Both the position numbers and the translations under genes were made by a program. Positions 34,221 to 63,029 of a DNA stretch of 64,000 bases are shown here, piece after piece; positions within the stretch are counted from its first letter, which is position 1, and the number at the start of each line of letters is the position of its first letter. The stretch is from Clostridia bacterium (lineage in GTDB: Bacteria > Bacillota > Clostridia > UBA1381 > UMGS1253). Under the pieces are notes generated by a model. It had not been told where the DNA came from. It ran no database searches and was given only the letters and a program-made list of their open reading frames with translations. Location: positions 59,479 through 123,478 of the forward strand of contig JAZTXH010000009.1 of assembly GCA_045636325.1 (NCBI GenBank), in the 5' to 3' direction.

Positions 34221-34718
34221 TTATTTATTTGCTTCTTTACTGCAAGCACAATCCAAAAGCATTTCAAGTTCATCAAAACTTTTACCTGAAGCTAAAATAA
34301 GCTCGCTGAAAAGAATCTGCTTTGAATTATTAAGCATTTTTCGCTCACCAGTGGAAAGCCCTTTCTGCTTGTCCCTTATAACAAGACTTTTAACTACTGC
34401 TAAAACCTCAAAAATATCACCGGTTTTTATACGCGACATATTATCTCTGTAACGCTTATTCCAGTTATTCTCTCTTACATTATCAAAAACAGTATTAAAT
34501 TCAGAAATGACCTTTTTTGCATATTCATCGTCTATAATATCACGCACACCAATTTCTTCAAGCTTCGAAGTTGAAAGCATAACCTTCATGTCGCCTGCAG
34601 GCAATTTTAAAACGTAATAGCTTTGCATTTCGCCTAAAATTTCTCTTTCTTCAATTCCGATAATTTCTCCCGCGCCGTGCATAGGATATAAAATTTTGTC
34701 ACCTATTTGATACTCCAT
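34221..34718 (-). CDS. carD: CarD family transcriptional regulator
   Basis: 165 aa with the CarD_CdnL_TRCF N-terminal Tudor-like block (GDKILYPMHGAGEI). Confidence 0.85.
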   Translation of the reverse strand: MEYQIGDKILYPMHGAGEIIGIEEREILGEMQSYYVLKLPAGDMKVMLSTSKLEEIGVRDIIDDEYAKKVISEFNTVFDNVRENNWNKRYRDNMSRIKTGDIFEVLAVVKSLVIRDKQKGLSTGERKMLNNSKQILFSELILASGKSFDELEMLLDCACSKEANK

Positions 34719-36027: not shown

Positions 36028-39000
36028 TTAAAGCTCAACATATCCGTCAAACACTTTGACTGCCTCACCGGTCATAAATACATCCTCATCAGTATATTTT
36101 ATGTGAAGCTCACCGCCGCGAAGTTTAACCTTAATATCTTCGTTTTTGGGGCAATATCCATTTTCAACTGCCGCCACAACCGCCGCACATGCACCGGTTC
36201 CGCATGCCCATGTTTCGCCGTTGCCGCGCTCCCACACACGCATTCTTATGGATTTGTCATCCATAACACAAACAAACTCAACATTTACTCTTTCTGGAAA
36301 CAACTCGCAATTTTCAATTTCAGGACCAATTTTTTCAATGTCCATTTTTTCAATGTCATTACTGAATATAACGCAATGGGGATTTCCCATTGAAACGCAT
36401 GTAATATCGTAGTGTTTTCCTGCGATTTCTACACTGTGGCAAACAACTTTTTCTCCATCAATATTTACCGGAACATCTTCCGGCTTAACAGAAGCTTGAC
36501 CCATATCCACAGCTGCCATAAACACACTGTCATTCTTTAAAAACACCTTAAGTGTTTTTATGCCGCTCATTGTTTCTATCTTCATAACATCCTTTTTAAC
36601 AATGCCTTTATCATAAAGGAATTTTGCCACACAACGTATAGCATTGCCACCCATCTTGCCTTCGCTGCCGTCAACATTGAATATGCGCATTTTTGCATCT
36701 GCCGCATCGGAAGAATAAATAAGCACCACGCCGTCTGCACCCACAGAAAATCTTCTGTCACACAAACGAATAGCAAGTCCTTCAGGATTATCTATCTTTT
36801 GCTCCATACAGTTAATATAAATATAGTCATTACCACAGGTATGCATCTTTGTAAACTGAATCTTAAGCTTATCTTCACGCATACTGTTTATATCAACAAT
36901 CTCAGTTGTATGCTCCGAATAACGGCTCATCAGACTGTCTGCTATTGCATTGGCAGTATCAATAGAAGTAAGACACGGAATATTTCTTTCTACTGCCTTT
37001 CTTCTTATCTTAACACTGTCACGTGTGGGAATTCTTCCCTTTGTAGATGTTGAAATAACATAGCTTAGCTTACCACTTTCAATAAGCTCGAGAGTGTTAT
37101 TATCACCCTCATGAATTTTATTTACAACGCTTACTTCAAGACCTGCATCTCTTAAAACCTTTGCTGTTCCCCTTGTAGAGTAAAGCTCAAATCCCATATC
37201 AGAGAATTTCTTTGCTAGGTCAAATACTTCGCTTTTATCAGAATCACGAACAGTTATAAATACTCCGCCTGTTTTATTGAGTTTATATCCGCTTGCTGCA
37301 AGACCTTTATAAAGCGCCTCCTGAAGATTCTGAGCAACACCCAAAACCTCACCGGTAGATTTCATTTCAGGGCCTAACTGGTTATCCACATTAATAAGCT
37401 TTTCAAAACTGAATACAGGCACCTTAACCGCCACATAAGACGAAAGCTTATAAAGACCTGTTCCATAACCCATATCCTTAAGCTTTTCGCCAAGCATAGC
37501 ACGGGTAGCAAGGTCAACCATGGGAATTCCCGTTACCTTACTGATATAAGGAATTGTTCTTGATGCTCTGGGGTTAACCTCAATAACATAAAGCTCGTCA
37601 TCATATATAACATACTGAATGTTAACAAGCCCATAGGTTTTCATTTCGACCGCAAGGTTTTTAGTACATTCAATAATTCTGTCACGCATTTTGTCATCAA
37701 GATTAAATGCAGGATATACCGCAATTGAGTCTCCCGAGTGAACACCCGCGCGCTCAATATGCTCCATAATGCCGGGAATTAATATTTCTTCACCATCACA
37801 TATAGCGTCAACCTCAATTTCCGTACCCATAAGATATTTATCAATAAGCACCGGATTTTTAATGTTCTGTGCAAGAATAATTGACATATATTCTCTTACA
37901 TCTTCATCGGAAAATGCGATAATCATATTCTGTCCGCCAAGAACGTATGAAGGACGCAAAAGCACCGGATAACCAAGCTTATGAGCAACATCCAGCGCTT
38001 CACATGCCGCCATTACAGTGTAACCGCTGGGACGTTCAATATGAAGCTTTTCCAAAAGCGCATCAAAACGTTCTCTGTCTTCTGCCATATCAATACTGTC
38101 AGCAGATGTACCAAGAATGTTCATTCCTATTTCATCAAGATAATTTGTAAGTTTGATTGCAGTCTGACCGCCAAATGCTACAACAACTCCAAAAGGATTT
38201 TCTGTTTTTATAATATCTGTTACATCTTCTTTTGTAAGCGGCTCAAAATAGAGTCTATCTGATGTATCAAAGTCTGTTGAAACAGTCTCAGGGTTATTAT
38301 TTACTATAACAACATCATATCCAAGCTCTTTAAGTGCCCATACACAATGAACAGATGCATAGTCAAATTCTATACCCTGACCAATTCTTATAGGACCTGA
38401 ACCAAATACTATAATTGTCTTCTTTTTATCTTTTTTATTTTTCAAAAATTCTTCTGCTTCGTTTTCATCATCAAATGTTGAGTAGAAATACGGTGTCTGT
38501 GCTTCAAACTCAGCCGCACAAGTGTCAACCATTTTAAACACTGCGCTTCTCTTGTTTATAATCTTCTGACCTGAAAGTCTTTCAATAACACTATCCATAT
38601 ATCCAAGCTTCTTTGCTTCAATATAAAGCTCGTCTGTAAGCGTTTCACTTTCAAGACGCTTCTGCATATTAGAAAGATTCAAAAGCTTGTATAAGAACCA
38701 GTTATCAATTTTTGTTATATCATTTATTTCTTCACAGCTTACCCCACGATACAGCGCTTCATATACCATGAACAAACGAAGGTCATTACAATCATAAAGT
38801 GCTTCATGAAGTTCTTCATCTGTCTTTGATTTTGCACCCTTATAGCTTAAAGTATCAAGTGAAATTTCAGCGCCGCGAACAGCCTTCATCATTGCAGCTT
38901 CAAAATTATCAGCAATACTCATAACCTCACCGGTAGCTTTCATCTGTGTTCCAAGAGCACGCTTTGCATATACAAACTTATCAAATGGCCATTTGGGGAA

Positions 39001-40068
39001 TTTAACAACAACATAATCGATAGAAGGCTCAAAACAAGCATATGTTGTTCCCGTAACGGCATTTTTAATTTCGCTTAATTCATAACCGATAGCAATTTTT
39101 GCTGCAACCTTCGCAATCGGGTAACCTGTCGCCTTTGAAGCCAACGCTGATGAACGTGAAACTCTGGGGTTAACCTCAATAACTGCATATTCAAAGCTGT
39201 CAGGCTTTAGTGCAAACTGACAGTTACATCCGCCTTCAATTCCAAGCTCGTTAACAATTGCCAAAGCTGCACTTCTTAACATCTGATATTCTTTATCAGA
39301 AAGTGTAACTGCCGGTGCAACAACTATTGAGTCCCCTGTGTGCACACCAACAGGGTCAAAGTTTTCCATGCTGCAGACAGTAATTGCATTTCCCTTACTG
39401 TCACGGATAACTTCAAACTCTATTTCTTTCCAGCCAGAAATACATTTTTCAACCAATACCTGATGTATGGGCGAAAGGTCAAGCCCATTCTGGCAGATTT
39501 CTTTCATTTCTTCATCGTTATTTACAATACCGCCGCCAGTACCTCCAAGGGTAAATGCAGGTCTTATAATAACGGGATATTCAATCTCATGAGCAAAAGC
39601 CATACCGCTTTCCAAATCATTTACAACAGTTGACGGGATACACGGCTGATTAATTTTATCCATCATATCCTTAAACATCTGTCGGTCTTCAGCGCGGTCA
39701 ATTGTTTCAACTCGTGCACCCAAAAGTTTTACACCATGTTCTTCTAAAAAGCCTTCTTTTGCGAGTTTCATAGACATTGTAAGACCTGTCTGACCGCCAA
39801 GAGTTGACAAAAGGCTGTCAGGCTTCTCTTTTTCAATAATTCTTTTAAGTGTTGTAATATCAAGGGATTCAATATATATTTTATCCGCCATTTTATTATC
39901 TGTCATAATTGTTGCAGGATTTGAGTTTACCAAAACAACCTCAAGCCCATCTTCTTTTAAAGCACGACATGCCTGAGTTCCCGCATAGTCAAATTCAGCT
40001 GCCTGACCAATGACAATAGGTCCAGAGCCAATAACCATTACTTTCTTTATATCCTTATTAAGTGGCAT
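36028..40068 (-). CDS. carB: carbamoyl-phosphate synthase large subunit fused in frame to a DapF-like (diaminopimelate epimerase fold) domain
   Basis: 1346 aa. Residues 1 to ~1062 are canonical CarB (two ATP-grasp halves plus an MGS-like domain). The last ~284 aa carry DapF blocks FTKMHTCGNDYI, NVDGSEGKMGGNAIRC, SMGNPH and ERGNGETWACGTGACA. Confidence 0.9.
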   Translation of the reverse strand: MPLNKDIKKVMVIGSGPIVIGQAAEFDYAGTQACRALKEDGLEVVLVNSNPATIMTDNKMADKIYIESLDITTLKRIIEKEKPDSLLSTLGGQTGLTMSMKLAKEGFLEEHGVKLLGARVETIDRAEDRQMFKDMMDKINQPCIPSTVVNDLESGMAFAHEIEYPVIIRPAFTLGGTGGGIVNNDEEMKEICQNGLDLSPIHQVLVEKCISGWKEIEFEVIRDSKGNAITVCSMENFDPVGVHTGDSIVVAPAVTLSDKEYQMLRSAALAIVNELGIEGGCNCQFALKPDSFEYAVIEVNPRVSRSSALASKATGYPIAKVAAKIAIGYELSEIKNAVTGTTYACFEPSIDYVVVKFPKWPFDKFVYAKRALGTQMKATGEVMSIADNFEAAMMKAVRGAEISLDTLSYKGAKSKTDEELHEALYDCNDLRLFMVYEALYRGVSCEEINDITKIDNWFLYKLLNLSNMQKRLESETLTDELYIEAKKLGYMDSVIERLSGQKIINKRSAVFKMVDTCAAEFEAQTPYFYSTFDDENEAEEFLKNKKDKKKTIIVFGSGPIRIGQGIEFDYASVHCVWALKELGYDVVIVNNNPETVSTDFDTSDRLYFEPLTKEDVTDIIKTENPFGVVVAFGGQTAIKLTNYLDEIGMNILGTSADSIDMAEDRERFDALLEKLHIERPSGYTVMAACEALDVAHKLGYPVLLRPSYVLGGQNMIIAFSDEDVREYMSIILAQNIKNPVLIDKYLMGTEIEVDAICDGEEILIPGIMEHIERAGVHSGDSIAVYPAFNLDDKMRDRIIECTKNLAVEMKTYGLVNIQYVIYDDELYVIEVNPRASRTIPYISKVTGIPMVDLATRAMLGEKLKDMGYGTGLYKLSSYVAVKVPVFSFEKLINVDNQLGPEMKSTGEVLGVAQNLQEALYKGLAASGYKLNKTGGVFITVRDSDKSEVFDLAKKFSDMGFELYSTRGTAKVLRDAGLEVSVVNKIHEGDNNTLELIESGKLSYVISTSTKGRIPTRDSVKIRRKAVERNIPCLTSIDTANAIADSLMSRYSEHTTEIVDINSMREDKLKIQFTKMHTCGNDYIYINCMEQKIDNPEGLAIRLCDRRFSVGADGVVLIYSSDAADAKMRIFNVDGSEGKMGGNAIRCVAKFLYDKGIVKKDVMKIETMSGIKTLKVFLKNDSVFMAAVDMGQASVKPEDVPVNIDGEKVVCHSVEIAGKHYDITCVSMGNPHCVIFSNDIEKMDIEKIGPEIENCELFPERVNVEFVCVMDDKSIRMRVWERGNGETWACGTGACAAVVAAVENGYCPKNEDIKVKLRGGELHIKYTDEDVFMTGEAVKVFDGYVEL

Positions 40069-41153
40069 TATTCTGCTCCTCCTTCTACTATCATTTTAAC
40101 AAATTTATCAAATAAAAATTCTGTATCCAACGGACCTGCCGCACCTTCCGGATGGAATTCAACAGAAAATGCAGGTGCGTTAGTTAAGCTTATACCCTCA
40201 CAAGCGCCATCGTTTGCATTTTCAAAGCTTACTTTCACATTTTCAGGAAAACTTTCCGGAACAAGAGCATATCCGTGGCTCTGACATGTTATATATATTC
40301 TGCCTGTTTTAACATCCTTTGCAGGCTGATTTTCACCTCTGTGACCATACTTTAATTTCTCACTTTTTGCCCCCTGAGAAAGGCCTAAAAGCTGATGGCC
40401 CATACTTATACCGAACATAGGAATCTTTTCATCGCAAAGTTTTTTAACCTCTGCTATAATACTTTTGTTTTCGCCCGGGTCTCCGGGTCCTCCTGATAAA
40501 ACAACGCCGTCAGCCTTATATGACATAATAGCTTTCGCTGTTGTATCCGCCGGCACTCTTATAACAGTTACATCGCGTTTTAAAAGTTGACGGATAACTG
40601 CCTCTTTTGTGCCAAGGTCTAATAAAACTATCTTGCGTTTTTCCTTTTCAGCTCTGTAAATCTTTACTTCTTTACAAGTAACTTCGCTGACAGGATTTAC
40701 TATCTTATGGCTTTTTATTTCTTCAATCTCTTTTTCATTTATCTTGTCGGAATATGCAATTCTCCCGTTCATAACACCATATTCACGAACGATTTTAGTA
40801 AGTCGCCTCGTGTCTATATCGTAAAGTCCCGGAATTTTATTTTCCTTCAAGTATGAATCAATGTCACCTTCACATCTGAAATTAGATGGATGCTCGCACC
40901 AACTTTTAACAATATATGCACCAATATACGGTTTATCGCTTTCAAAATCCGAACTTATAACCCCGTAATTTCCAAGGCTTGGAAATGTCTGAGTGACAAT
41001 CTGACCGTAAAGGCTTGGGTCCGTAATTGTTTCAAGATATCCCGACATGGAAGTAGTAAAAACAACTTCACCAGTTACCTCTTTTTCATAACCAAAGCTT
41101 TTACCTTTGAAAACAGTTCCATTTTCAAGAATAAGATAAGCTTCTTTTGCCAT
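40068..41153 (-). CDS. carA: carbamoyl-phosphate synthase small subunit with Ser at the glutaminase nucleophile position
   Basis: 361 aa. The class I GATase block reads FGISMGHQLL where the family has GICLGHQ. The His/Glu of the triad is retained (EFHPE). TAATG overlap with carB. Confidence 0.9.
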   Translation of the reverse strand: MAKEAYLILENGTVFKGKSFGYEKEVTGEVVFTTSMSGYLETITDPSLYGQIVTQTFPSLGNYGVISSDFESDKPYIGAYIVKSWCEHPSNFRCEGDIDSYLKENKIPGLYDIDTRRLTKIVREYGVMNGRIAYSDKINEKEIEEIKSHKIVNPVSEVTCKEVKIYRAEKEKRKIVLLDLGTKEAVIRQLLKRDVTVIRVPADTTAKAIMSYKADGVVLSGGPGDPGENKSIIAEVKKLCDEKIPMFGISMGHQLLGLSQGAKSEKLKYGHRGENQPAKDVKTGRIYITCQSHGYALVPESFPENVKVSFENANDGACEGISLTNAPAFSVEFHPEGAAGPLDTEFLFDKFVKMIVEGGAE

Positions 41154-41293
41154 AATATATTTCCTCCTGTACGTAATTTATATATTTCACTTATATTTTT
41201 CCGCATTATTCGCCGTATTAATATTTTAGCCATACGGTATATGTATTTTTATAAACTTGATATATTTTTGTTTTTTATTGGCTTTATATACAC

Positions 41294-41326
41294 AAAGAGC
41301 AGAGTGAATACCATCCTCTGCTCTTT
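41294..41326 (-). other. stem-loop at the predicted 5' end of the carA transcript
   Basis: AAAGAGCAGAG-11 nt-CTCTGCTCTTT: perfect 11-bp arms starting a few nt downstream of the -10. Confidence 0.5.
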
Positions 41327-41327
41327 T

Positions 41328-41356
41328 ATTATACACTATTTCTAAAAAAATGTAAA
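41328..41356 (-). promoter_or_regulatory. sigma-A promoter of carA-carB::dapF
   Basis: Minus strand reads TTTACA (41351-41356), a 17-nt spacer, then TATAAT (41328-41333). Confidence 0.6.
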
Positions 41357-41367
41357 GCAATTTAACA
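41351..41367. promoter_or_regulatory. TnrA/GlnR-type box overlapping the carA -35
   Basis: TGTAA-AGCAATT-TAACA matches TGTNA-N7-TNACA at all fixed positions. Confidence 0.55.
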
Positions 41368-41464
41368 GGTCTTTTTTAATGTATAATAAAAGTTTTTTAA
41401 GTTGTTGTCATTTTGCACTTTTTTCAAAAGCATCAAATAAAAATACAATTGCACAATGACTAAA

Positions 41465-41728
41465 CTAAATACATATCCTGTAATAGATAATCGGATTTTT
41501 AAAAAATGCATCCGCTCTCTTTTGCTTTATTTCCATTTTTAAATCAAAAACACTGTCTTTCAAACCATTTCTAATCATATCTTTGCTTTTTATTTTTAAA
41601 ATAAAAGGTGAAAAATATTTAAAATCCGCACACACATAATAACATCCGTCAAATAATGCTGACATCTTATACTTCACAGCTGTTATTCCATTTTTAATTT
41701 TGCTGTTATAAAATTTTTCAGCAAGCAT
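41465..41728 (-). CDS. small hypothetical protein (87 aa)
   Basis: ATG preceded by GAAAGGAGA 8 nt upstream, plus a consensus promoter ~100 nt further upstream. No recognisable domain. Confidence 0.5.
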   Translation of the reverse strand: MLAEKFYNSKIKNGITAVKYKMSALFDGCYYVCADFKYFSPFILKIKSKDMIRNGLKDSVFDLKMEIKQKRADAFFKNPIIYYRICI

Positions 41729-41843
41729 AAAAAATCTCCTTTCAAAAAAAAACGCGAAATCCATACTTTTACATAAAAAAAGACATCCGGATACAATAAC
41801 CTAATGTCTGTGTATGCAAATTTTCATCACACATATTTATTAT

Positions 41844-41872
41844 AGTATATATTACACTAACATATTTGTCAA
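41844..41872 (-). promoter_or_regulatory. sigma-A promoter of the 87-aa ORF
   Basis: Minus strand reads TTGACA (41867-41872), a 17-nt spacer, then TATACT (41844-41849). Confidence 0.6.
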
Positions 41873-42139
41873 TAGCTTTATCCTAATTTTGGCGAAAAAA
41901 AGCAATTTTTAATAAGTTTTTTAAAATTTTTTATAGATTTTTTTATTCCTTGGAATTTGAATTCTTTTTAATTTTGTTTCTTAAATTATAAAATTATAAT
42001 TTATAACACACCTTAACATATTTTTTAATCAAGCTTGTCCCTCAAGCTTAATATAGCCAAGCTTTTACTTAATAAAATTAAGTTTACTGTGCTTTTTATT
42101 TGTTTTAAAAAGACATTTACTCACCTTTTTAAAAATCCG

Positions 42140-42168
42140 TTGACTTTTTATATGAATCCGTGTATACT
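42140..42168 (+). promoter_or_regulatory. sigma-A promoter of the type III glutamine synthetase gene
   Basis: TTGACT (42140-42145), a 17-nt spacer, then TATACT (42163-42168). Confidence 0.7.
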
Positions 42169-42192
42169 GTAAAATGTAAAATTGTTAAACGC

Positions 42193-42209
42193 TGTGATTG
42201 GTGTTCACA
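42193..42209. promoter_or_regulatory. TnrA/GlnR-type box in the glnN leader (also the stem of a terminator-like hairpin)
   Basis: TGTGA-TTGGTGT-TCACA is a perfect match to TGTNA-N7-TNACA. The extended 9-bp stem at 42189-42213 is followed by a T7 run ending at 42219, 25 nt before the ATG. Confidence 0.6.
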
Positions 42210-42244
42210 GTGTTTTTTTAATCATTTGAAAGGGGCATTGATAA

Positions 42245-44341
42245 ATGAAAAATATTCCCGATTTATTTGGCTCAATGGTTTTTAACACTCACGTTATGCG
42301 TGAGCGTCTGCCTAAATCAACATATGATGAGCTTCTCAAAGCGATAGATGAAGGTCTTCCTTTAGAGCCGGAAGTTGCAAACGTTGTTGCAAATGCAATG
42401 AAAGACTGGGCTATAGAAAAAGGTGTAACTCATTATACTCACTGGTTTCAGCCTATGACTGGTATTACTGCAGAAAAGCACGACAGCTTTATATCACCCT
42501 ATGGTGAAGATTCCGTTATAATGGAATTTTCCGGAAAAGAATTAATTAAAGGCGAGCCTGATGCATCAAGCTTTCCTTCCGGTGGTCTTCGTGCAACATT
42601 TGAAGCAAGAGGCTACACTGCATGGGACCCCACATCCTTTGCTTTTATAAAAGATAACACCCTTTGTATTCCCACTGCTTTTTGCTCATACACCGGCGAA
42701 GCACTTGACAAAAAGACTCCTCTTCTGCGTTCAATAGAGGTTATTGATAAGCAGGCAATGAGAATTCTGCGTCTTTTTGGAAATACAACCGCAAAAAAAG
42801 TTATTACAACCGTTGGTCCTGAGCAGGAATATTTCCTTATAGATAAAAAGCTTTATGATGAAAGAAAAGACCTTATTTATACCGGCAGAACTCTTTTCGG
42901 TGCTCCTGCACCAAAAGGTCAGCAGCTTGATGACCATTATTTCGGAACAATAAAACCTAGAGTTGCCGCGTATATGAAAGAGCTTGATGAGGAGCTCTGG
43001 AAGCTTGGTGTTCTGGCAAAAACAAAGCATAACGAGGCAGCTCCTGCACAGCATGAGCTTGCACCCATATTTGCTACAACAAATATTGCAACCGATCACA
43101 ATCAGCTTACAATGGAAATAATGAAAAGAGTTGCCACAAAACATGGTCTTGTATGTCTTCTTCATGAAAAACCGTTTCAGAGCGTAACCGGCAGTGGCAA
43201 GCACAATAACTGGTCACTTTCCACCGATACTGGCGAAAACCTTTTAAAACCCACAAGTAAGCCCCATGAAAACAAGCAATTTTTACTTTTCCTTTGCGCT
43301 GTTATCAAAGCAGTTTATGAACATCAAGATTTACTCAGAATTTCAATTGCCAGCGCAGGGAATGATCATCGTCTTGGTGCTGACGAGGCTCCGCCCGCTA
43401 TAGTTTCTATGTTTATAGGCGATGATTTGGAAGAAGTTTTGAATGCAATTGCAAACGATAAAGAATACATAAAGAACGCAACAAAATATATTGACAGCGG
43501 CACACATGCATTGCCAGATTTGAAAAAGGACACAACAGATCGTAACCGCACATCTCCATTTGCATTCACCGGAAACAAATTTGAGTTTCGTATGCTTGGC
43601 TCTTCTTTCTCTGTTGCCGCTCCCAATACAATTTTAAACACCATAGTTGCAAGTGTATTGGACGAATTTGCAACAGAGCTTGAATCAGCAAATGATTTTT
43701 CATCTGCGGTCGACGCCCTCATCAAGAAAACTGCAAAAAAATACAAAGATATTATTATTTTCAACGGCAACAACTATTCTGATGAATGGGTAAAAGAAGC
43801 TGAAAGACGCGGCCTTTACAACTTAAAAACTACTCCTGATGCAATTCCTCTTCTTACAAGCAAAAAGAATGTTGATTTGTTCACAAAATACGGTGTTTAT
43901 TCTGAAATTGAACTTCATTCAAGATGTGACATACTTTTGGAAAACTACTCAAAAATACTAAACATCGAAGCAAACACGATGCTTGAAATGGCCAAGAAAG
44001 ATATTCTGCCTGCAGTTATCAGCTTTACAAAAGAGCTTGCTGAAACATTAAATGCAAAAAAGACTCTTTCTTTAGATGTTTCATGCTTTGCAGAAGAAGA
44101 ACTTTTAAAGAGAGTTTCTCTTCTTTCTGAAAATCTCTACCGCAGAATCCAGACTCTTGAAAAAGCGGTTTCGGGCGCAAAAAATGTATCCGATACAGAA
44201 AAACTTGCCGTATATTATAAAGACAAAGTTCTTTCGGCAATGAATTACCTTCGCGAAAGCGCAGATACTTTAGAAACCATCGTTGGTGAAAAATACTGGC
44301 CATTCCCCTCTTACGGAAAGCTTTTGTTCTCAGTCAACTGA
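42245..44341 (+). CDS. glnN: glutamine synthetase type III
   Basis: 698 aa. GSIII-type N-terminus (FGSMVFN…[12 protein letters not shown]) and length. Confidence 0.9.
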
Positions 44342-46790: not shown

Positions 46791-47633
46791 TCATAAAGAC
46801 TCTGTCTGCCCTTTTATGTAATCAATAAGGAGCTCATGAACATTTACGTCTGTCAGCTCATAAAGCATTCTTGCTCCCACAACATCCTCAATTTCATTAA
46901 GCTTCATTTCATCACCATCAAATATAAAATCTATACCTGCATATGTAAAATCAAAGTAGCCTATAACCTTTTCAATAAGTTTTCTTTCATTTGGTGATAT
47001 ATTGTAAAGCTCTGCTTTGCCACCAAGTGAAAAATTACTTCGAAAGTCAATATCCGAGCTTCTTAGTATCCCTGCAAGGATTTTGTTTCCTAATACATAA
47101 ACCCTTAAATCTCTGCCTGTTGTGCCTGCAATTTTCTGCACAAGAAAACAATCTGTCCCGTAACTTTTTACTGCCGCTTCAAGCTCATATTTATTGTTTG
47201 CAATGAATACGCCCTCTCCGCCGTGGCCGTCAGCCGGCTTTACAACACAAGGATATCTTATATCTTCTGCATCATATGAAAAAAAACGTCTGTCAAAAAA
47301 AAGCGTGTCCATCATAGGAATACCTTTATCAGCAAGATAAAAATGAGTTTTCCTTTTATCGTTGCATACATTAGAAATAAACGAATTATTAAAAACTCTT
47401 ACTCCCGCTTTTTCAAAAAATTCACTTAAAAACGGGAAGATACTTCTGTTAATAACAAACTGCGGAAATCCCCCGTTTACTTTTAATCCATCTTTATTTA
47501 TTCCAAACACAATATCCTGTGCATATTTAAGTTTTAAATCAATTCCACACGTGTGCGCATATTCAATAAGAGTGTGAATAAACCAGCGGTTTTTCTCCGC
47601 TTCAACTTTTCCGTATATAATCCATCCGGTCAT
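46791..47633 (-). CDS. divergent RimK-type ATP-grasp ligase (paralogue 2)
   Basis: 280 aa. YPCVVKPADGHGGEGV ATP-grasp block. The C-terminal metal-ligand block reads DFIF…NEIED instead of D…E-x-N. Confidence 0.7.
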   Translation of the reverse strand: MTGWIIYGKVEAEKNRWFIHTLIEYAHTCGIDLKLKYAQDIVFGINKDGLKVNGGFPQFVINRSIFPFLSEFFEKAGVRVFNNSFISNVCNDKRKTHFYLADKGIPMMDTLFFDRRFFSYDAEDIRYPCVVKPADGHGGEGVFIANNKYELEAAVKSYGTDCFLVQKIAGTTGRDLRVYVLGNKILAGILRSSDIDFRSNFSLGGKAELYNISPNERKLIEKVIGYFDFTYAGIDFIFDGDEMKLNEIEDVVGARMLYELTDVNVHELLIDYIKGQTESL

Positions 47634-47637
47634 ATTA

Positions 47638-48498
47638 TCATAGCCTGTCTTTAATATATTTTATAATCTCTTCACTTAAATCAATACCAGTGCAATGAAG
47701 AGTGCTTTTAAAATGAGGATTTGAATTCACTTCGCATATAATGCTTTCACCGTTTTTACCAAAAAGCACATCCACTCCTGCAAATTCAAGGCCAACAGCC
47801 TCGCATGCCGCAATCGCAATCTGTTTTTGCTCAACCGTTGCTTCTTCAGCTTTCATTTTGCCACCGTTTGAAATATTAGAGCGAAAATCGCCGCTTGTAT
47901 TATAGCGCAGCATTGATGCCACTGCCCTGCCGCCAACAACATTAACTCTTATATCTCTCCCTTTGCTTTCTTCTATAAATTCCTGCATTATAAACTCTTT
48001 TGCGCCAATTTTTTCTGCAATTTCTTTTGCTTCTTCAAAATTATTTGCAAGATAAACCTGCTGACCGAAAGAGCCGTAGCTTTCTTTAATTACCATAGGA
48101 TATCCCAAATCATCCCCGGCTTTTTTTAAAAAACCAAGATTATTATATCCAAAGGTCTCAAAGGTTTTAGGTGCAATATATGTTTTTGGCACTTTTATAC
48201 CCTTTTTCGCAAGGTATATTGCGCTAAGACTTTTACTGTCAGATATTTCAATCGCCCTTGCACTGTTAAACACCCGCACTCCCATATCCTCAAGAAGCAT
48301 GGCAAGCTTTACATCCTTGTCCCAGAAAAGCACAAAATCAGGTAAATCAACTTTTTCGCCGACCGCAAAAAACACATCACATGTTTTTTTAAGTTCAAGA
48401 GTAATTCCATACCTTTTTGATGCATCTAAGAGATATGCATATATCTCATTAAACTTTTTAATTTCTATAAAACTGTTAACAATAAGCCATCCGGTCAT
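47638..48498 (-). CDS. RimK-type ATP-grasp alpha-L-glutamate-ligase-like protein (paralogue 1)
   Basis: 286 aa. YPMVIKESYGSFGQQV, RSNISNGG and GVDVLF…ICEVNSNP motifs. Confidence 0.75.
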   Translation of the reverse strand: MTGWLIVNSFIEIKKFNEIYAYLLDASKRYGITLELKKTCDVFFAVGEKVDLPDFVLFWDKDVKLAMLLEDMGVRVFNSARAIEISDSKSLSAIYLAKKGIKVPKTYIAPKTFETFGYNNLGFLKKAGDDLGYPMVIKESYGSFGQQVYLANNFEEAKEIAEKIGAKEFIMQEFIEESKGRDIRVNVVGGRAVASMLRYNTSGDFRSNISNGGKMKAEEATVEQKQIAIAACEAVGLEFAGVDVLFGKNGESIICEVNSNPHFKSTLHCTGIDLSEEIIKYIKDRL

Positions 48499-54504: not shown

Positions 54505-55173
54505 TTATTTTCTTTTTACTATATTGTCCATACTTTTAACAATACAGCCTGCTGCAAAAACGCCCCTGAGTGAATTAAGAGGGTAAACAGTTGTGTTCTT
54601 TCCTATCACTGTTCCGGGATTAAGCACACATGAGCATCCAACATCTGCCCCGTCTGCCAATACACCGCCAATTTTTCTTATTCCGGTTTTATAATCAATA
54701 TCCCCATGAATAACAACCGGCTTGCCGTCAGCCTTAAGATTAGAACAAATAGACCCTGCACCCATATGAGCGTGATTGCCCAATATAGAATCTCCTATAT
54801 AATTATAATGCGGAACTTGCACTTTGTCAAGTAAAATACAATTTTTTAACTCCGATGAATTTCCGATAACACAATTTTCACCGGTTATGACACTGCCTCT
54901 TATGAATGCGCCCGGCCTCACTTCACAGTAATGACCTATAATCGTGGGTCCTTCAATTACTGCATTTGGATATATTTTTACATTTTTTCCGACCCATACG
55001 CCTTTTTCTATTTCGAAAAAACCGTCCAAACCATTTTCAATAAGATTTTCAATATACCCTTTTATCTTTTCTAACATCTGCCAGGGATATTCGCTTTTTT
55101 CAAAAAGCTCTTTTAAATAGGGTGTTCTACATTCAAAAAGCTCGTTTGTTTTAACCTGCTTATTCAACACCAT
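54505..55173 (-). CDS. left-handed beta-helix (hexapeptide) acyltransferase resembling the GlmU C-terminal domain
   Basis: ~222 aa. Hexapeptide repeats with HYNYIGDSILGNHAHMGAGSICSN, similar to GlmU LbH. No nucleotidyltransferase domain. Confidence 0.6.
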   Translation of the reverse strand: MVLNKQVKTNELFECRTPYLKELFEKSEYPWQMLEKIKGYIENLIENGLDGFFEIEKGVWVGKNVKIYPNAVIEGPTIIGHYCEVRPGAFIRGSVITGENCVIGNSSELKNCILLDKVQVPHYNYIGDSILGNHAHMGAGSICSNLKADGKPVVIHGDIDYKTGIRKIGGVLADGADVGCSCVLNPGTVIGKNTTVYPLNSLRGVFAAGCIVKSMDNIVKRK

Positions 55174-56782
55174 GTCCCCTTTCAATAATTTTGTCTGAAA
55201 CAATCTGTGCATATTCTATGCATTTATCTTTACTTTCACACTCAATCATAACTCTTATAACTGGCTCTGTTCCGCTTTGACGCAAAAGCACTCTTCCCTT
55301 TCCTCCAATAAGTTTTTCCACATAAGAAAGCTCTTCAATCACTGCATCATCCGTCATAACTGATTTCTTATCCTTAACGCGAATATTTTTCATATACTGC
55401 GGATACAATTTAACTGGCTCAGCAAGCTCTGACAAAGAACGTTTTCTATCACAAACTTCTTCAGTAAGCATTATAGCTGTAAGTATACCATCACCGGTGG
55501 TCGCATATTTTTTCAAAATTATATGCCCCGATTGTTCACCGCCAAGACAATAATCATTTTGTTGCATGCTCTCATACACAAATCTATCGCCAACATTTGT
55601 TTGTACACATTTTATGCCCTCTTCTTCAAGGCTGGAAAGCAGTCCGCTGTTTGTCATAACTGTTGCAACTATAGTATTGTGGTTAAGCACACCTCTGTTT
55701 TTTAAACGCTTACCTAAAATATAGAGCATTAAATCACCATCTACTACATTTCCGTTTTCATCAACTGCTATACATCTGTCAGCATCTCCATCGAAGGCAA
55801 AACCCATATCAAGGTGCTGTTCACGAACAAGCTTACAAAGATTTTCAATATGAGTTGAGCCACACCCTTCATTTACATTAAGTCCGTTAGGTTCGGCTCC
55901 AATTACAACAGTTTGTGCACCAAGCGCTCCAAATACCGCTTTTGCAATCATCCACGAAGCGCCGTTAGCACAGTCCAATCCAATTTTAAGCGATTTATAT
56001 GAATGTGACGCAATAGAAATCAAATAACCAAGATATCGGTTTCTGCCTGATGCATAGTCTACAATGCAACCAATTTTCTCTCTGCCTGCCAAAGGTAGGT
56101 CATCAGATACAACACCAAATGCCTTTAAATCACCATCAATATAGCTTTCTATAAGTGAAGTTGTAGAATCTTCAAGTTTTTCACCATAGCGGTTTATAAC
56201 CTTTATACCATTATCATAATATGGATTATGAGATGCAGTAATCATTATACCGCAATCAAACTCATCCTGACGGGTAACATAAGAAACACTTGGTGTTGTG
56301 GTAACATGCAGCATATATGCATCCGCACCTGATGCTGTAATTCCTGCAACAATGGAATATTCAAGCATATAACTTGACCTTCTTGTGTCTTTTCCTATAA
56401 CAATTCTTGGTCTGTATCCAGCCTTTGTGTTACCTGAAAGCGCAGAAGAATAATACCACCCCAGAAAACGACCAACCTTATATGCCTGCATAGATGTAAG
56501 CGTAAGGTTTGCCTCACCGCGAAAACCGTCAGTTCCAAAATACTTATTTGAGCCTAATTTCTTCTCAATCTTATGATTTATAGTAATTTTATCCTGTAAT
56601 AATTCGTCTGTTGAAATATCAAACAACTCACAAAGCTGTAAAACCTTATCAATCTGCGGAATTGCCTGATCCATTTCCCATTTTGAAACAGACTGTCTGG
56701 AAACTGAAATCCTTTCTGCCAATTGCTCCTGAGAAATATTAGCGGCGGTTCTAAGTTTTAAAATTTTTTCACCTATAGTCAT
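55160..56782 (-). CDS. glmM: XRE-type HTH domain fused to phosphoglucosamine mutase
   Basis: 540 aa. Residues 1 to ~65 are HTH_3 (LRTAANISQEQLAERISVSRQSVSKWE). The remainder is intact GlmM (TASHNP, FDGDADR, GGEQSGH, RQSGTEP). Confidence 0.85.
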   Translation of the reverse strand: MTIGEKILKLRTAANISQEQLAERISVSRQSVSKWEMDQAIPQIDKVLQLCELFDISTDELLQDKITINHKIEKKLGSNKYFGTDGFRGEANLTLTSMQAYKVGRFLGWYYSSALSGNTKAGYRPRIVIGKDTRRSSYMLEYSIVAGITASGADAYMLHVTTTPSVSYVTRQDEFDCGIMITASHNPYYDNGIKVINRYGEKLEDSTTSLIESYIDGDLKAFGVVSDDLPLAGREKIGCIVDYASGRNRYLGYLISIASHSYKSLKIGLDCANGASWMIAKAVFGALGAQTVVIGAEPNGLNVNEGCGSTHIENLCKLVREQHLDMGFAFDGDADRCIAVDENGNVVDGDLMLYILGKRLKNRGVLNHNTIVATVMTNSGLLSSLEEEGIKCVQTNVGDRFVYESMQQNDYCLGGEQSGHIILKKYATTGDGILTAIMLTEEVCDRKRSLSELAEPVKLYPQYMKNIRVKDKKSVMTDDAVIEELSYVEKLIGGKGRVLLRQSGTEPVIRVMIECESKDKCIEYAQIVSDKIIERGHGVE

Positions 56783-57135: not shown

Positions 57136-57897
57136 TCATACTTTTACAAGTTCTACCTTGCTTTCTTTTAAAACATTTTCCCAACTTTCGGAAATCGTCG
57201 CATCAGTTATAAGACATTCTATATCTTCAAACCTTGCAAGTTTAGCAAATCCAACTCTGCCAATCTTACTTTTGTCACATAAATAATACGCACTTTTGGA
57301 ATTTTTAAGCATACATTTTTTTATGCCGCACTCCTGCTCATTACTTTCAAGGATTCCCGTTTCTTCCATAATGCCTTTACTGGAAAAAAACATTTTATCA
57401 GCAAAATAATTTTTAGAAATATTATCTTCAGCCAATGTTCCTACAAGGCTCATATTGTGACTAGCAATTCCGCCAACAGCAATAAGCTTAATGTTTTCAC
57501 TACCGGCAAGCTCATTCACAACACGAATGGAATTTGTAATGACAGTAATATTTTTTATATTATTTATTTCCTTTGCCATATAAAAAGTAGTAGTAGACGC
57601 ATCAAGAAAAACTGTGTCACCAGGCAGTATGTATCCTGCTGCCACTGCAGCAAGCTTTTCCTTTGCATCAACATTCGTACGCTTTCTTTTTTCAAGCGAA
57701 AGCTCATATGCAGTTGCATCAATTGGAACAGCTCCGCCATGTGTTCGCATTAAACACTCTTGTTTTTCAAGTTTTTCAAGATCACGTCTTATTGTCTCTT
57801 CTGTAACTCCAAGCTCACTGCTTAATCGGCTTACCCATACTGCACCGTTATCAGCAAGCTTTTGAAGTATAATCTTCTGACGTTCAAGTGCAAACAT
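57136..57897 (-). CDS. DeoR/GlpR family transcriptional regulator
   Basis: N-terminal HTH_DeoR (ERQKIILQKL…VTEETIRRDLEKLE) plus a DeoR C-terminal sensor domain. Starts 11 nt after the pduL stop. Confidence 0.85.
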   Translation of the reverse strand: MFALERQKIILQKLADNGAVWVSRLSSELGVTEETIRRDLEKLEKQECLMRTHGGAVPIDATAYELSLEKRKRTNVDAKEKLAAVAAGYILPGDTVFLDASTTTFYMAKEINNIKNITVITNSIRVVNELAGSENIKLIAVGGIASHNMSLVGTLAEDNISKNYFADKMFFSSKGIMEETGILESNEQECGIKKCMLKNSKSAYYLCDKSKIGRVGFAKLARFEDIECLITDATISESWENVLKESKVELVKV

Positions 57898-57908
57898 ATA
57901 TCTGTCTC

Positions 57909-58583
57909 CTACTTCTGAATTATTCTTACCTTGTTTCCATTCTTGAGGCCGGCTGAGTTTGCATCATCAGTATCAATATGCATCTCAACATTAAAATCAT
58001 CACGAACTCGAACCTGAACACCATAAAATTTTGTAGTTTTTAAGTTTTCGCCTTCTATCATAACGTCAACATAATCATTATCCTTAATGGCGTGCTTTTC
58101 GGCATATTCAGGAGTTAAGTGTATATGGCGGTTGGCAATGATAACGCCTTCCTTTAAATATACGCTACCCTTAGGTCCTACAATAACCAGTTTTTCCGAA
58201 CCCTTAATTTCACCTGAAGGTCTCACCGGAGGGCTAACCTTTAAAACAAACGTATCTGTTCTTGAAATTTCTACTTGAGTATTTTTTCTTACCGGACCCA
58301 AAACCCTTACCTTTTCTATACTTTTCAGTGATGGACCAACCAAAGTAACAAACTCATTTGAAGCATACTCTCTGCCCATAAGAGTTTTAAACTTTGTAAG
58401 CTCATATCCTTTACCGAAAAGAGTGTCTAAATCTTCACGGCTAAGGTGAATGTGTCTTTGTGACACACCTACCTTAATCTCTCCATCATCAGATTCCTTA
58501 TCACTTGCCTGCGGTGCACCGCTTTTATTTATATCAGCAATAACTTCTGCTACTATCTTTTCAATCTGTGCTGCATCGTACAT
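57909..58583 (-). CDS. pduL: phosphate propanoyltransferase (PduL-type phosphotransacylase) with an N-terminal encapsulation peptide
   Basis: Duplicated PduL motifs (GVSQRHIHLS, IIANRHIHLT). An amphipathic N-terminal helix AAQIEKIVAEVIADI. Confidence 0.85.
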   Translation of the reverse strand: MYDAAQIEKIVAEVIADINKSGAPQASDKESDDGEIKVGVSQRHIHLSREDLDTLFGKGYELTKFKTLMGREYASNEFVTLVGPSLKSIEKVRVLGPVRKNTQVEISRTDTFVLKVSPPVRPSGEIKGSEKLVIVGPKGSVYLKEGVIIANRHIHLTPEYAEKHAIKDNDYVDVMIEGENLKTTKFYGVQVRVRDDFNVEMHIDTDDANSAGLKNGNKVRIIQK

Positions 58584-58600
58584 TTATTTCACCTCACAAA

Positions 58601-59248
58601 TTACTCATTCATATCAAAAAACTTAACAATTTCGCCTGATACATTTGCAATAACTTCACAACCGTATACCTTACCAAGCCTTGATGCCGCATTACTGCCG
58701 TTTTCCAAAGCTGATTTAACATCAGAAACTCTGCCCGCAATGATAAATGTACAAAGTCTGCCTCCAAGGCGCTTTTCTGTATGCACAAGGCGTATGTTTG
58801 CCGCCTTAAGCATATTGTCAAGACCTTCTATAGATGCAACAAGCCCCTGAACCTCCAAAAGACCAATGGCACCTGTATAGCTCGGCACAAATTCCCCTTT
58901 TCTTGATTTTTCAAGGTTTTCTTTAAAATGCTTGTTGTATTTATCTTTATTTATATCTGCAAGATACGCCATCTTGTCCACAGTATCCTCAGGTCTTGGA
59001 ATAACATGAGAAACAATAAACTTTCCGCAATCCTTTGCATAAGCGCTTCCTGCTTCAACAGCCGCGTTAACTGCATCGACATTGCCCTCTATCTTTACCA
59101 CCATAACAAGCGGTGCAGGCACATCTGTTCTTATTGGTCTGTTTCTGTCAAAAGCGACAATCTGAACGTCAGCCGCTTTTGCTGCTGTGTCTGCCACACA
59201 AACCGCAGTTGTAAAGCTGTAAACCTCAATCAAACCTAATGCTTTCAT
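58601..59248 (-). CDS. tandem-BMC-domain shell protein (BMC-T)
   Basis: 215 aa. Two non-permuted BMC domains (ALGLIEVYS… and AIGLLEVQG…). Confidence 0.75.
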   Translation of the reverse strand: MKALGLIEVYSFTTAVCVADTAAKAADVQIVAFDRNRPIRTDVPAPLVMVVKIEGNVDAVNAAVEAGSAYAKDCGKFIVSHVIPRPEDTVDKMAYLADINKDKYNKHFKENLEKSRKGEFVPSYTGAIGLLEVQGLVASIEGLDNMLKAANIRLVHTEKRLGGRLCTFIIAGRVSDVKSALENGSNAASRLGKVYGCEVIANVSGEIVKFFDMNE

Positions 59249-59265
59249 TTATAACACTCTCCGTA

Positions 59266-60693
59266 TCAAACAATATGTAGTCCGTCAGCCATTACGCATC
59301 TTCTCTGACGAGTAAAGCTTCTTGCTGATGTAATACCCTCACCGGTAGGTCCTGCAATAGTAAATGTTGTATGACCTTCACCCCCTGCACCGATACCTGC
59401 ATAAGAAGGAGCATTCTTAACAAATATTGTTGTTTCAACTGCACGCGCAAATGCGGTAAGTCTGTCAACATTCTTTGAATGAATATGTGCACTGTGGCGG
59501 TTGCCATGTTCTGCCTTAACTGCCATATTTATAGCTTCTTCAATATCATTAACTCTAACAATAGCAAGAATTGGCATCATCATTTCAACCTGAACAAAAG
59601 GATGATTTTCTTCTGTTTCACAAATAATCAGTTTAGCATCAGCCTCAATTCCAAGCTCTTTTAAGAACTTCTTTGCATCTTTTCCTACCCATTTTTTATT
59701 TATAGAATATTTACCGTCTTTTTCAACAAGACAAAGCTTAACCAAATCATCAATCTGCTTACCCTTAAGAAGATATGCACCTGCATCCTGCATGTAAGCA
59801 ACCAGCTGGTCTGTAATACTTGCAAATGCAAAACATTCTTTTTCTGCAATACAGGGAAGGTTATTGTCAAAGCTTGCACCTGCAACAATATCAGATGCCG
59901 CCTTTTTAATATCAGCAGTATCATCTACTATAACAGGAGGATTGCCTGCACCAGCACCTATTGCCTTCTTGCCTGAAGACAAAAGTGCACGCACAACGCC
60001 TGGGCCACCTGTTGCAACAAGCATCTTTACAAGAGGAGATGCCATCATTTCATCTGAGCTTTCCTTTGTAGGCTGCTCTACTGAAACAACTAAATTTTCA
60101 GGACCGCCTGCTTCAAGAATTGCGCGGTTTACCAAATCAACTGCGTAATTTGCTGTTTTGCACGCATTAGGGTGGGGATTGAAAACAACTGCGTTACCGC
60201 CTGCAATCATACCCATTGAGTTACATAAAACTGTTTCACTGGGATTTGTAGAAGGTGTTATACTTCCAATAACGCCGTAAGGTGCCATCTCTATAAGTGT
60301 AAGACCTGCATCGCCTGTAAATACCTTCGGCTCCAAATCCTCTGTACCAGGAGTCTTTTTTGCCACAAGCTGATGCTTGATAATCTTATCAGGCACATTA
60401 CCCATACCTGTTTCTTCAACACCAAGCTTTGCCATTTCTTCTGCTTCCTGTAATGTAAGCTTTCTAATATTTGAAATCATCTGTTCTCTCTGCTCAACTG
60501 TATATGAGCGGAACTGAGCATATGCCTTACCTACTGCATCCAAAGCTTCGCCCATTGTTTTAAATACACCCTTCTGCGCATGACACTTGCAGTCACCACC
60601 GCAACTGCCGCCACAAGAACATTTGCTCTCGCCATCCATAACGCTCATAACTGCTTCAACAATTTTTGATAACTGTGTTTCATCAATCTTCAT
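59266..60693 (-). CDS. CoA-acylating aldehyde dehydrogenase (PduP/EutE type) with an encapsulation peptide and a Cys-rich linker
   Basis: Catalytic block NNLPCIAEKE. N-terminal helix ETQLSKIVEAVMSVM. Linker CSCGGSCGGDCKCH at residues 25-38. Confidence 0.85.
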   Translation of the reverse strand: MKIDETQLSKIVEAVMSVMDGESKCSCGGSCGGDCKCHAQKGVFKTMGEALDAVGKAYAQFRSYTVEQREQMISNIRKLTLQEAEEMAKLGVEETGMGNVPDKIIKHQLVAKKTPGTEDLEPKVFTGDAGLTLIEMAPYGVIGSITPSTNPSETVLCNSMGMIAGGNAVVFNPHPNACKTANYAVDLVNRAILEAGGPENLVVSVEQPTKESSDEMMASPLVKMLVATGGPGVVRALLSSGKKAIGAGAGNPPVIVDDTADIKKAASDIVAGASFDNNLPCIAEKECFAFASITDQLVAYMQDAGAYLLKGKQIDDLVKLCLVEKDGKYSINKKWVGKDAKKFLKELGIEADAKLIICETEENHPFVQVEMMMPILAIVRVNDIEEAINMAVKAEHGNRHSAHIHSKNVDRLTAFARAVETTIFVKNAPSYAGIGAGGEGHTTFTIAGPTGEGITSARSFTRQRRCVMADGLHIV

Positions 60694-60748
60694 ATCACAT
60701 TGCTCCTGTCTTTAAAAATATCTATCACAAAAAACTTAATTTTCTACT

Positions 60749-61297
60749 TTATAAAATTGCCTGCCATAGCTTTTTATCGGGATTTGCAATAACAGAACTA
60801 TCAAGAAACATTCCTGCTCCGCCTGCTTTTTCTTTTGCACGTTCAATTGCCGCACTTACAGCTGCAATTTCACCTGTTATAAGCATATAGCTCTTACCGC
60901 ACATTCCCCTTGCAAGCCTTAACTCTATAAGCTCAACCATGCTGGTCTTTGCCGCTTCATCTGCTGCAACAATCATACTTGCCGCACTGTATGTTTCCAA
61001 AACACCCAGCGCCTTTGCATTCTCAATCTCACCGGTACCATATATTGCAGGAATAACCGACTCGTGAGGATTACCAAGAACAAAGCTGTCAATCATTTTA
61101 TCACCACATAAGCTTTTAGCCGCATCCACACAAGCACGCACCGCACTTATCTCCCCCGAAAAAAGCATAATATACTTACCCGGACACACCGTCTGAGCTT
61201 CAATAATTTCCACTTCAGCAGTTTTAACAACCATATCAGCAGCATACATACCTGCCGAAACAGTCTGATATTCTATCATTCCAATTGCACTTCTCAT
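60749..61297 (-). CDS. PduT-like tandem BMC shell protein
   Basis: Two BMC domains with QTVCPGKY (the Cys position that ligates a 4Fe-4S cluster in PduT). Start set to the ATG with a GGAGGAGAG SD. Confidence 0.75.
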   Translation of the reverse strand: MRSAIGMIEYQTVSAGMYAADMVVKTAEVEIIEAQTVCPGKYIMLFSGEISAVRACVDAAKSLCGDKMIDSFVLGNPHESVIPAIYGTGEIENAKALGVLETYSAASMIVAADEAAKTSMVELIELRLARGMCGKSYMLITGEIAAVSAAIERAKEKAGGAGMFLDSSVIANPDKKLWQAIL

Positions 61298-61314
61298 ATT
61301 ATTCTCTCCTCCGC

Positions 61315-62646: not shown

Positions 62647-62671
62647 TTACCCCATTTGTCTGATTCTATTA

Positions 62672-62938
62672 TTATAAGTTCACCCAGTCATCAACGATAC
62701 CTACGATAGCGGCATCAACCGGTGAAGTGTCCATACTGCAACCTATTCTTGCTGCGCTTCCAGTTGCAATCAAAACAATTTCACCTATTCCGGCACCAAC
62801 GTTATCAACAGCAACTATTCTGCCTTCGCCCATGCCTTCCATGGGTGAAACTATTAAAAACTTACTTCCAACAAGATTTTCATTTTTTCGTGTCGCAACA
62901 ACACTTCCTACAACCTTACCAACAATCATGAATTTCAC
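62672..62938 (-). CDS. EutN/CcmL-family pentameric vertex protein (BMC-P)
   Basis: 88 aa. (M)IVGKVVGSVVATRK N-terminus. The start could be the GTG at 62938 or the ATG at 62929. Confidence 0.85.
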   Translation of the reverse strand: MKFMIVGKVVGSVVATRKNENLVGSKFLIVSPMEGMGEGRIVAVDNVGAGIGEIVLIATGSAARIGCSMDTSPVDAAIVGIVDDWVNL

Positions 62939-62966
62939 CCGTTTCCTTATAAAGTAAGCCTATATT

Positions 62967-62998: not shown

Positions 62999-63029
62999 TT
63001 TTAACAGGCACATAAATTTACCTTGCTAA

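Follow-up and report, generated by a model that had tools for sequence, protein, structure and literature searches.

Free NH3 serves Escherichia coli carbamoyl phosphate synthetase (CPS) as a substrate with a high Km, and engineered blockage of the E. coli tunnel is said, from work by Huang and Raushel in 2000, to stop the use of glutamine and not that of NH3. The C269S variant of the E. coli small subunit was reportedly found by Rubino et al. in 1986 to be inactive with glutamine, and PDB entry 1c3o is reported to be this variant crystallised with glutamine bound. Bacillus subtilis possesses an arginine-specific CarAB as well as a pyrimidine-specific PyrAA/PyrAB, and peptidase E shares the class I amidotransferase-like fold. 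The defining feature of glutamine-hydrolysing CPS (CPS II, EC 6.3.5.5) is a Cys-His-Glu triad, formed in E. coli CarA by Cys269, His353 and Glu355. Glutamine is hydrolysed via a thioester, for which Cys269 and His353 are essential (PMC6245113), and residues equivalent to Leu270 and Gln273 govern glutamine binding (PMC4655335; PMC7657897). Human CPS1 is unable to use glutamine, a property ascribed to Ser294, and every other type of CPS is described as glutamine-using (PMC4655335); neither of the two experimentally characterised precedents for the same Cys-to-Ser exchange, E. coli C269S and CPS1 Ser294, uses glutamine (PMC6245113; PMC4655335). Bacterial CPS is classed as glutamine-dependent CPS II, and ammonia-only CPS is regarded as a vertebrate invention (PMC6022934; PMC4655335). 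In the literature searched, the coverage of which was incomplete, no report of a triad-less bacterial CarA was found, and bacterial CPS is classed there as CPS II.

Here, a carA gene is described from a 64-kb stretch of DNA (hereafter the window, meaning the whole stretch analysed), the product of which has Ser250 in place of the triad Cys and belongs to a clade in which this substitution is fixed.

A carA gene with serine at the nucleophile position

The 361-aa ORF at 40068..41153 on the minus strand is a bona fide and intact carA encoding the CPS small subunit, with TIGR01368 giving 424 bits (cut-off 307) and NF009475 giving 419 bits (cut-off 221). It lies directly upstream of carB, to which it is coupled by a TAATG overlap at 40066-40070.

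40068..41153, minus strand: carA, with CPSase_sm_chain (PF00988, 164 bits) at the N-terminus and class I amidotransferase (PF00117, 143 bits) at the C-terminus; its stop and the carB start share one base
40404..40406, minus strand: AGT codon of Ser250, at the position of the nucleophile (E. coli Cys269)
40146..40154, minus strand: His334-Pro-Glu336 in EFHPE (E. coli His353/Glu355), kept in all Ser-type sequences

The elbow of the window CarA reads MFGI-S-MGHQLL, with AGT as the reverse complement of 40404-40406, and a phmmer comparison with the PDB places Ser250 opposite E. coli CarA residue 269, and its best match is the engineered C269S mutant itself (1c30/1c3o, FGISLGHQLL). Ser250 is the true homologue of Cys269; both the codon and the PDB alignment confirm the exchange that a first-pass annotation of this DNA had reported, together with the retention of the triad His and Glu, which are His334 and Glu336. 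The glutamine-binding residues Ser47, Met/Leu270 and Gln273 (E. coli numbering; the latter two are Met251 and Gln254) are likewise retained in the window lineage.

The window CarA thus resembles E. coli C269S (1c30, 1c3o) in family, position and residue, with His353 and Glu355 intact in both, but that mutant was engineered, whereas the window protein is natural and additionally carries Asn240Gly, Asn311Ser, Gln351Glu and Ala356Gly. The two are 40-45% identical overall, and the CarB partner in the window is fused to DapF. With human CPS1 (Ser294; PDB 5dot) it has in common a natural Cys-to-Ser exchange and a retained glutaminase-like domain, which is under purifying selection in the window. The first-pass statement that mammalian CPS I naturally has Ser at the nucleophile position is borne out by Ser294 (PMC4655335) and by the CPS1 sequence in the PDB (FGISTGN...QNHGY...VQFHPE), in which Ser stands beside retained His and Glu. 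CPS1 keeps QNHG and FHPE, and its glutaminase-like domain is a non-catalytic module (PMC4655335); since CPS1 cannot use glutamine despite its His and Glu, the retention of these residues in the window CarA is no evidence of activity. CPS1, which needs N-acetylglutamate, differs in being a single polypeptide, whereas the window enzyme is encoded by two separate ORFs, and in having changed glutamine-binding residues (GISTGNL; T295, L298), which the window protein keeps (GISMGHQ). A CPS1-like loss of glutamine-binding residues is hence not seen in the window sublineage, and a change of Gln273 to Glu occurs only in the sublineage of the homologue P0003.

Distribution of the Ser-type clade and selection

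A survey of carA orthologues for Ser versus Cys, as proposed in the first-pass annotation, showed that Ser recurs in the clade. In a collection of 5.8 billion proteins, 117 of the 120 closest homologues carry Cys and three carry Ser, namely the window protein, P0002 (89% identity) and P0003 (69%). Cluster members and the GTDB metagenome-assembled genome L007 bring the Ser-type proteins to seven distinct ones in total, none of which deviates from Ser, His and Glu at the three triad positions. In neighbour-joining trees the Ser proteins form a single clade nested within Cys-type sequences, and the relatives stem from MAGs of gut and rumen origin. When metagenomes were scanned for an elbow with Ser (AGY), only three distant CarA-like and 13 non-CarA matches came up, and no new member of the clade.

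The corresponding codon of the Cys-type relatives is TGT or TGC, from which a single transversion leads to the Ser codons, and this single-base difference is what would speak for a base-call or assembly error in which TGT was misread as AGT. However, Ser-type genes were recovered from six independent assemblies, from different samples and from three sublineages at 69-94% protein identity; the five other than the window all have Ser, encoded by AGC and not by the AGT of the window, with flanking codons that differ synonymously. Moreover, the Ser co-varies with substitutions at other invariant positions. Six independent assemblies and the co-varying substitutions lead us to reject an error, the probability of which is negligible.

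For carA as a whole the dN/dS ratio is 0.047, and for its amidotransferase (GATase) domain it is 0.059; dS exceeds 1.3 and is saturated, reaching 1.6 even for the closest two DNA sequences compared. A low dN/dS at saturated dS means that selection maintains the gene as well as each of the residues Ser, His and Glu. The Cys-to-Ser substitution is fixed, and under selection, in the clade. A pseudogene, or a gene in decay, was considered separately and is ruled out by the intact ORF, the dN/dS of about 0.05 and the 92% conservation of CarB between Ser sublineages.

Remodelling of the glutaminase domain

The substitution of the nucleophile is accompanied by further changes in the same domain.

40086..40634, minus strand: class I amidotransferase domain, aa 174-356, with 10/59 invariant positions changed
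40491..40493, minus strand: Gly221 for an invariant Asn (E. coli Asn240), turning SNGPGDP into SGGPGDP
40278..40280, minus strand: Ser292 for the Asn of the QNHG motif (E. coli Asn311), a change common to all Ser-type sequences
40158..40160, minus strand: Glu332 for an invariant Gln (E. coli Gln351, QFHPE motif)

The invariant set comprises the 59 positions of the GATase domain that are identical across the 117 Cys-type homologues, and of these 10 are changed in the window protein, 9 in P0002 and 8 in P0003. Equally deep Cys clades, each left out whole, show at most 3/59 changes, and none of the 88 clades exceeds five. No such excess is seen in the N-terminal domain of the Ser clade (2-4/56 changes, versus up to 6 in the sister clade), and the shift of constraint is specific to the glutaminase domain. 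Among the residues concerned, Asn240 immediately precedes the oxyanion-hole Gly241, and Gln351 and Ala356, the latter being Gly in the window, flank His353/Glu355; Asn311 is 99% conserved and does not belong to the fully invariant set. The P0003 sublineage shows the extra changes Gly267Ala and Gln273Glu, with Ser47Ala in one member, a pattern that suggests an erosion of glutamine binding there. The Glu found at the position of E. coli Gly293 was considered as a CPS1-like block of the tunnel and rejected, as it is not specific to the Ser type and is shared by the Cys-type proteins P0006 and P0010.

CarB and its fused DapF domain

The large subunit encoded downstream carries a C-terminal extension.

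36028..40068, minus strand: carB::dapF in-frame fusion, 1346 aa, with the CarB core at aa 1-1060
36031..36864, minus strand: complete DapF (diaminopimelate epimerase) domain at the CarB C-terminus, TIGR00652 291 bits, cut-off 115
36649..36651, minus strand: Gly (GGT) for the first catalytic Cys of DapF (Cys73), KMGGNAIRC versus SCGNG/MCGNG in 2otn/9mro

CarB scores 1497 bits on NF003671 and keeps Cys232/Ala251/Ala313 (or 314), the residues named as the gate of the ammonia tunnel (PMC8674909). Only 2/1060 CarB positions are specific to the Ser clade, and no coordinated change in CarB or in the tunnel gate was found in the comparison of these 1060 positions and of the gate residues; the CarB of this clade is unchanged.

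Of the two catalytic Cys residues that characterise DapF, the fused domain of the window has only the second (Cys217, 36202-36204), and it is probably a non-working epimerase. Gly takes the place of Cys73 in the window and in L007, the two Ser-type lineages with an available CarB; Cys stands at this position in the nearest Cys-type relatives, and Ser or Ala in other lineages. An association of the CarA triad state with the DapF Cys73 state is suggestive only, as the lineages are not phylogenetically independent. The CarB::DapF fusion is widespread in Clostridia and Synergistaceae, where it occurs with intact or defective CarA, and is absent from pyr-operon CPS loci.

The nitrogen donor of the Ser-type enzyme

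On balance, it is probable that the Ser-type protein is a non-hydrolysing CarA, retained as the partner, structural or allosteric, of an ordinary CarB, and that the CPS works on free NH3. As the nucleophile Cys is replaced by Ser, CarA would not hydrolyse glutamine via a thioester; it would be retained under strong purifying selection as a structural partner that CarB needs, and perhaps also as a glutamine-binding allosteric partner. The unaltered CarB would then produce carbamoyl phosphate from bicarbonate, two ATP and free NH3, with the ammonia-rich gut or rumen habitat as the likely source of the latter. It is in this sense that we infer the loss of glutaminase activity, the use of NH3 and any adaptive value of the change. 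A glutamine-blind, ammonia-dependent CPS had been predicted in the first-pass annotation, and in view of the C269S and CPS1 precedents a non-hydrolysing, NH3-using enzyme is the most likely interpretation. "Glutamine-blind", however, is too strong a term, as Ser47, Met/Leu270 and Gln273 are kept and glutamine may therefore still bind. Some observations stand against an NH3-dependent enzyme with a non-hydrolysing CarA: GISMG is formally a GxSxG serine-hydrolase elbow, and CarB shows no change that would compensate for a high Km for NH3 such as that of E. coli CPS.

The Ser site may still perform chemistry or binding, given that selection preserves Ser, His and Glu alike, whereas most other nucleophile-loss lineages lose His as well. 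This leads to a different reading, which we consider unlikely, in which the Ser-His-Glu triad is competent: Ser250 would attack glutamine or another amide donor via an ester acyl-enzyme in a re-tuned site, for which Asn240Gly, Asn311Ser, Gln351Glu and Ala356Gly are the proposed re-tuning changes, and the CPS would stay amide-dependent. The strictness of the three residues in all seven Ser-type proteins despite saturated dS, the Ser47 and Gln273 kept in the window sublineage, and the contrast with other nucleophile-loss lineages, which mostly drop His too, are what such an enzyme would lead one to expect. A related fold with an elbow Ser plus His and Glu is also found in peptidase E (MEROPS S51), the Ser-His-Glu triad of which hydrolyses amides (PMC11078827), but the window CarA shows no sequence-level membership of that family, which consists of a peptidase and not of a synthetase subunit. 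Furthermore, E. coli C269S is inactive with glutamine, CPS1 is inactive although it has Ser, His and Glu (PMC4655335), and Gln273Glu and Gly267Ala in the P0003 sublineage should disturb glutamine binding.

Triad loss in related CarA proteins and two types of CPS locus

The window CarA is not a singular case. Of 45 full-length CarA proteins from species-representative genomes, which a search with the window protein had yielded, 10 have an incomplete triad; for example, Gly occupies the nucleophile position, with His/Glu lost, in L036, L040, L054, L051 and L037 (the cultured Massiliimalia timonensis), Glu occupies it in L042, and Cys is kept but His lost in L012, L038 and L055. Triad loss was observed across the loci L012, L036, L037, L038, L040, L042, L051, L054, L055 and L072 and the proteins P0136-P0270. 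Cys-His-Glu is present in only 73 of the best 150 representatives of 50%-identity clusters, a clustering that over-counts fast-evolving dead CarA forms, and searches of 90%-identity clusters yielded 3/120 and 11/120 defective proteins. The residues seen at the nucleophile position are Gly, Asp, Asn, Ala, Glu and Ser, often with His lost; most other nucleophile-loss lineages lose His as well, which the Ser clade does not, and Ser with intact His and Glu is the mildest and rarest form of triad loss. In a neighbour-joining tree, the losses appear to go back to four independent events or more. By these sequence counts, triad loss in related CarA is frequent, recurrent and unannotated: all seven Ser-type or triad-dead variants tested (7/7) pass the curated "glutamine-hydrolyzing" equivalog models, and it is a problem of annotation that both Ser-type and triad-dead CarA receive this name.

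Two types of CPS locus are found in related Clostridia, namely pyrR-pyrC-pyrF-carA-carB without DapF (L018, L020, L023, L026-L028, L037, L039, L042, L052 and L072) and a nitrogen cluster (N-cluster) with carA-carB::dapF (L003, L009, L011, L053 and L074), to which the window belongs by type; triad loss is seen in both. This is reminiscent of the dual CPS of Bacillota such as B. subtilis, as a pyr-operon CPS stands beside a separate CPS locus, but this likeness rests on locus types in different relatives and not on one genome. Unlike the arginine CPS of B. subtilis, the second type lies in a nitrogen-assimilation cluster (GS III, GOGAT, GS I, ANTAR) and has CarB::DapF. No second carA or CPS gene is present elsewhere in the 64-kb window. 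With both locus types present among relatives, it would be plausible for the genome of the window to encode a second CPS that is linked to pyr genes.

Such a second enzyme could mean that the loss was merely tolerated in a redundant copy: a pyr-operon CPS with intact CarA would supply carbamoyl phosphate, and Ser would be nearly neutral and have no adaptive link to ammonia. Besides the existence of two distinct locus types in related Clostridia, the fact that triad loss has occurred many times, independently and in both types, is as buffering would predict, and the fused DapF has lost a catalytic Cys in the same clade. Yet the two types have been seen only across relatives and never in one genome, and CarA, with a dN/dS of about 0.05, and CarB, with 92% identity between Ser sublineages, are so strongly conserved that the enzyme must still be in use. 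Ser itself is also conserved and does not drift to Gly or Ala, and we regard a redundant copy as improbable. As a separate observation, the carA/carB/dapF region gives only fragmentary, low-identity matches at 8003-13060 of L050, an Oscillospiraceae chromosome, which may be a decayed CPS locus.

Gene neighbourhood and regulation

The gene order around carA and the putative regulatory elements upstream of it were compared with those of the relatives.

42245..44341, plus strand: type III glutamine synthetase (GS III), PF12437 275 bits, divergent from carA
34221..34718, minus strand: carD-like gene, which anchors the synteny with L074, a Cys-type N-cluster locus, and with L007
41328..41367, minus strand: carA promoter-like site TTTACA-17-TATAAT, 11/12, the -35 of which overlaps the palindrome TGTTAAATTGCTTTACA, of TnrA/GlnR-type consensus
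41292..41330, minus strand: hairpin GAGCAGAG...CTCTGCTC, lying at the 5' end predicted for the carA transcript, with a stem conserved in L006
42187..42215, plus strand: hairpin with T-run, downstream of the GS III promoter-like site and ahead of the start codon, deleted in L006

In the Cys-type N-cluster the order is GS III, asnA, split GOGAT, purA, GS I and ANTAR regulator, followed by carA-carB::dapF-carD, so that the ANTAR regulator lies directly upstream of carA. The window keeps GS III, carA, carB::dapF and carD, and its interval 41154-42244 is without asnA, GOGAT, purA, GS I and ANTAR; in L075 (88% identity) purA alone remains between GS III and carA. GS I and ANTAR are present upstream of carA in L003, L009, L011, L053 and L074 and missing in every Ser-type locus. 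The locus has thus been rearranged, and it is the orthologue of the carA-carB::dapF operon that is linked to nitrogen assimilation and stands behind GS I and the ANTAR regulator in Cys-type relatives.

The first-pass annotation had taken the neighbouring type III glutamine synthetase as part of a coherent arrangement that looked deliberate rather than decayed. The adjacency itself is real; however, GS III also stands beside carA in the Cys-type relatives L003/L005, L074, L053 and L019, where the neighbourhood is richer, and a design specific to Ser was rejected, as the adjacency is ancestral and common to Cys-type relatives. The absence of decay likewise holds (dN/dS of about 0.05), whereas a deliberate arrangement is not upheld, given that GS III is ancestral and the upstream box is weakly conserved.

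This box, described as TnrA/GlnR-like, is an exact TGTNAN7TNACA palindrome at 41351-41367 ahead of carA, and the window contains five such matches versus 1.39 expected. The match is exact and overlaps the -35 element, but conservation is weak: in L006, an 89% relative in which the promoter-like site and the 5' hairpin of carA are conserved, the box has one mismatch, and none of the other 50+ loci has a strict box ahead of carA. Among the window ORFs that were scanned, no MerR-type regulator of the GlnR/TnrA kind was noted. A second match (42193-42209) falls inside the GS III leader hairpin and is deleted in L006; this hairpin is terminator-like and could be a leader attenuator. No riboswitch, T-box or other known RNA was found in the carA and GS III leaders, as Rfam gave no match anywhere in the window. 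Between GS III and carA lies a 99-aa ORF (41465-41764, minus strand) without a Pfam or NCBIfam match, the ribosome-binding site and start of which are conserved in L006, with a fast-diverging coding sequence.

Implications

The importance of these findings lies mainly in the facts that the change is selected, that the glutaminase site is remodelled and that the pattern is broad and unannotated. If the NH3-dependent reading is true, the window would provide a natural and selected Cys-less bacterial CarA, among many triad-less ones in gut Clostridia, which would imply a repeated switch to ammonia in bacteria. Such enzymes would be simple two-subunit systems in which to study the entry of external NH3 into CPS, and models of nitrogen flow in gut and rumen would change, as carbamoyl phosphate would cost no glutamine and no ATP of glutamine synthetase. 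A pyr-linked second CPS, if present, would make the case either a bacterial parallel of the vertebrate split into CPS I and CPS II or a tolerated loss in a redundant copy. A more far-reaching scenario, which we put forward as doubtful, is that gut and rumen Clostridia repeatedly made their CPS a free-ammonia counterpart of CPS I with a pseudo-glutaminase CarA; the CarA of the window clade, by virtue of its preserved Ser-His-Glu site and glutamine-binding residues, would be a glutamine sensor that tunes NH3-dependent synthesis, the DapF without Cys73 would be a second regulatory pseudo-enzyme, and the switch would have coincided with the loss of GS I/ANTAR, a module for nitrogen limitation, upstream of carA.

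Other features of the window

A bacterial microcompartment locus occupies 57136-63434 (minus strand), with three BMC-domain shell genes, a PduL-type phosphotransacylase, an aldehyde dehydrogenase, an RnfC/Nuo51-like protein and a DeoR regulator; in L003, genes for PTAC and DeoR likewise lie close to the carA cluster. A tandem pair of RimK-like ATP-grasp genes (46791-48498, minus strand) adjoins recX and rimO. The ORF at 55160-56782 (minus strand) combines an N-terminal HTH_3 with a full phosphoglucomutase/phosphomannomutase, which is either an unusual fusion or the result of a start called too far upstream, and the IspH (LytB) encoded at 6656-8635 (minus strand) forms a fusion with four S1 RNA-binding domains.
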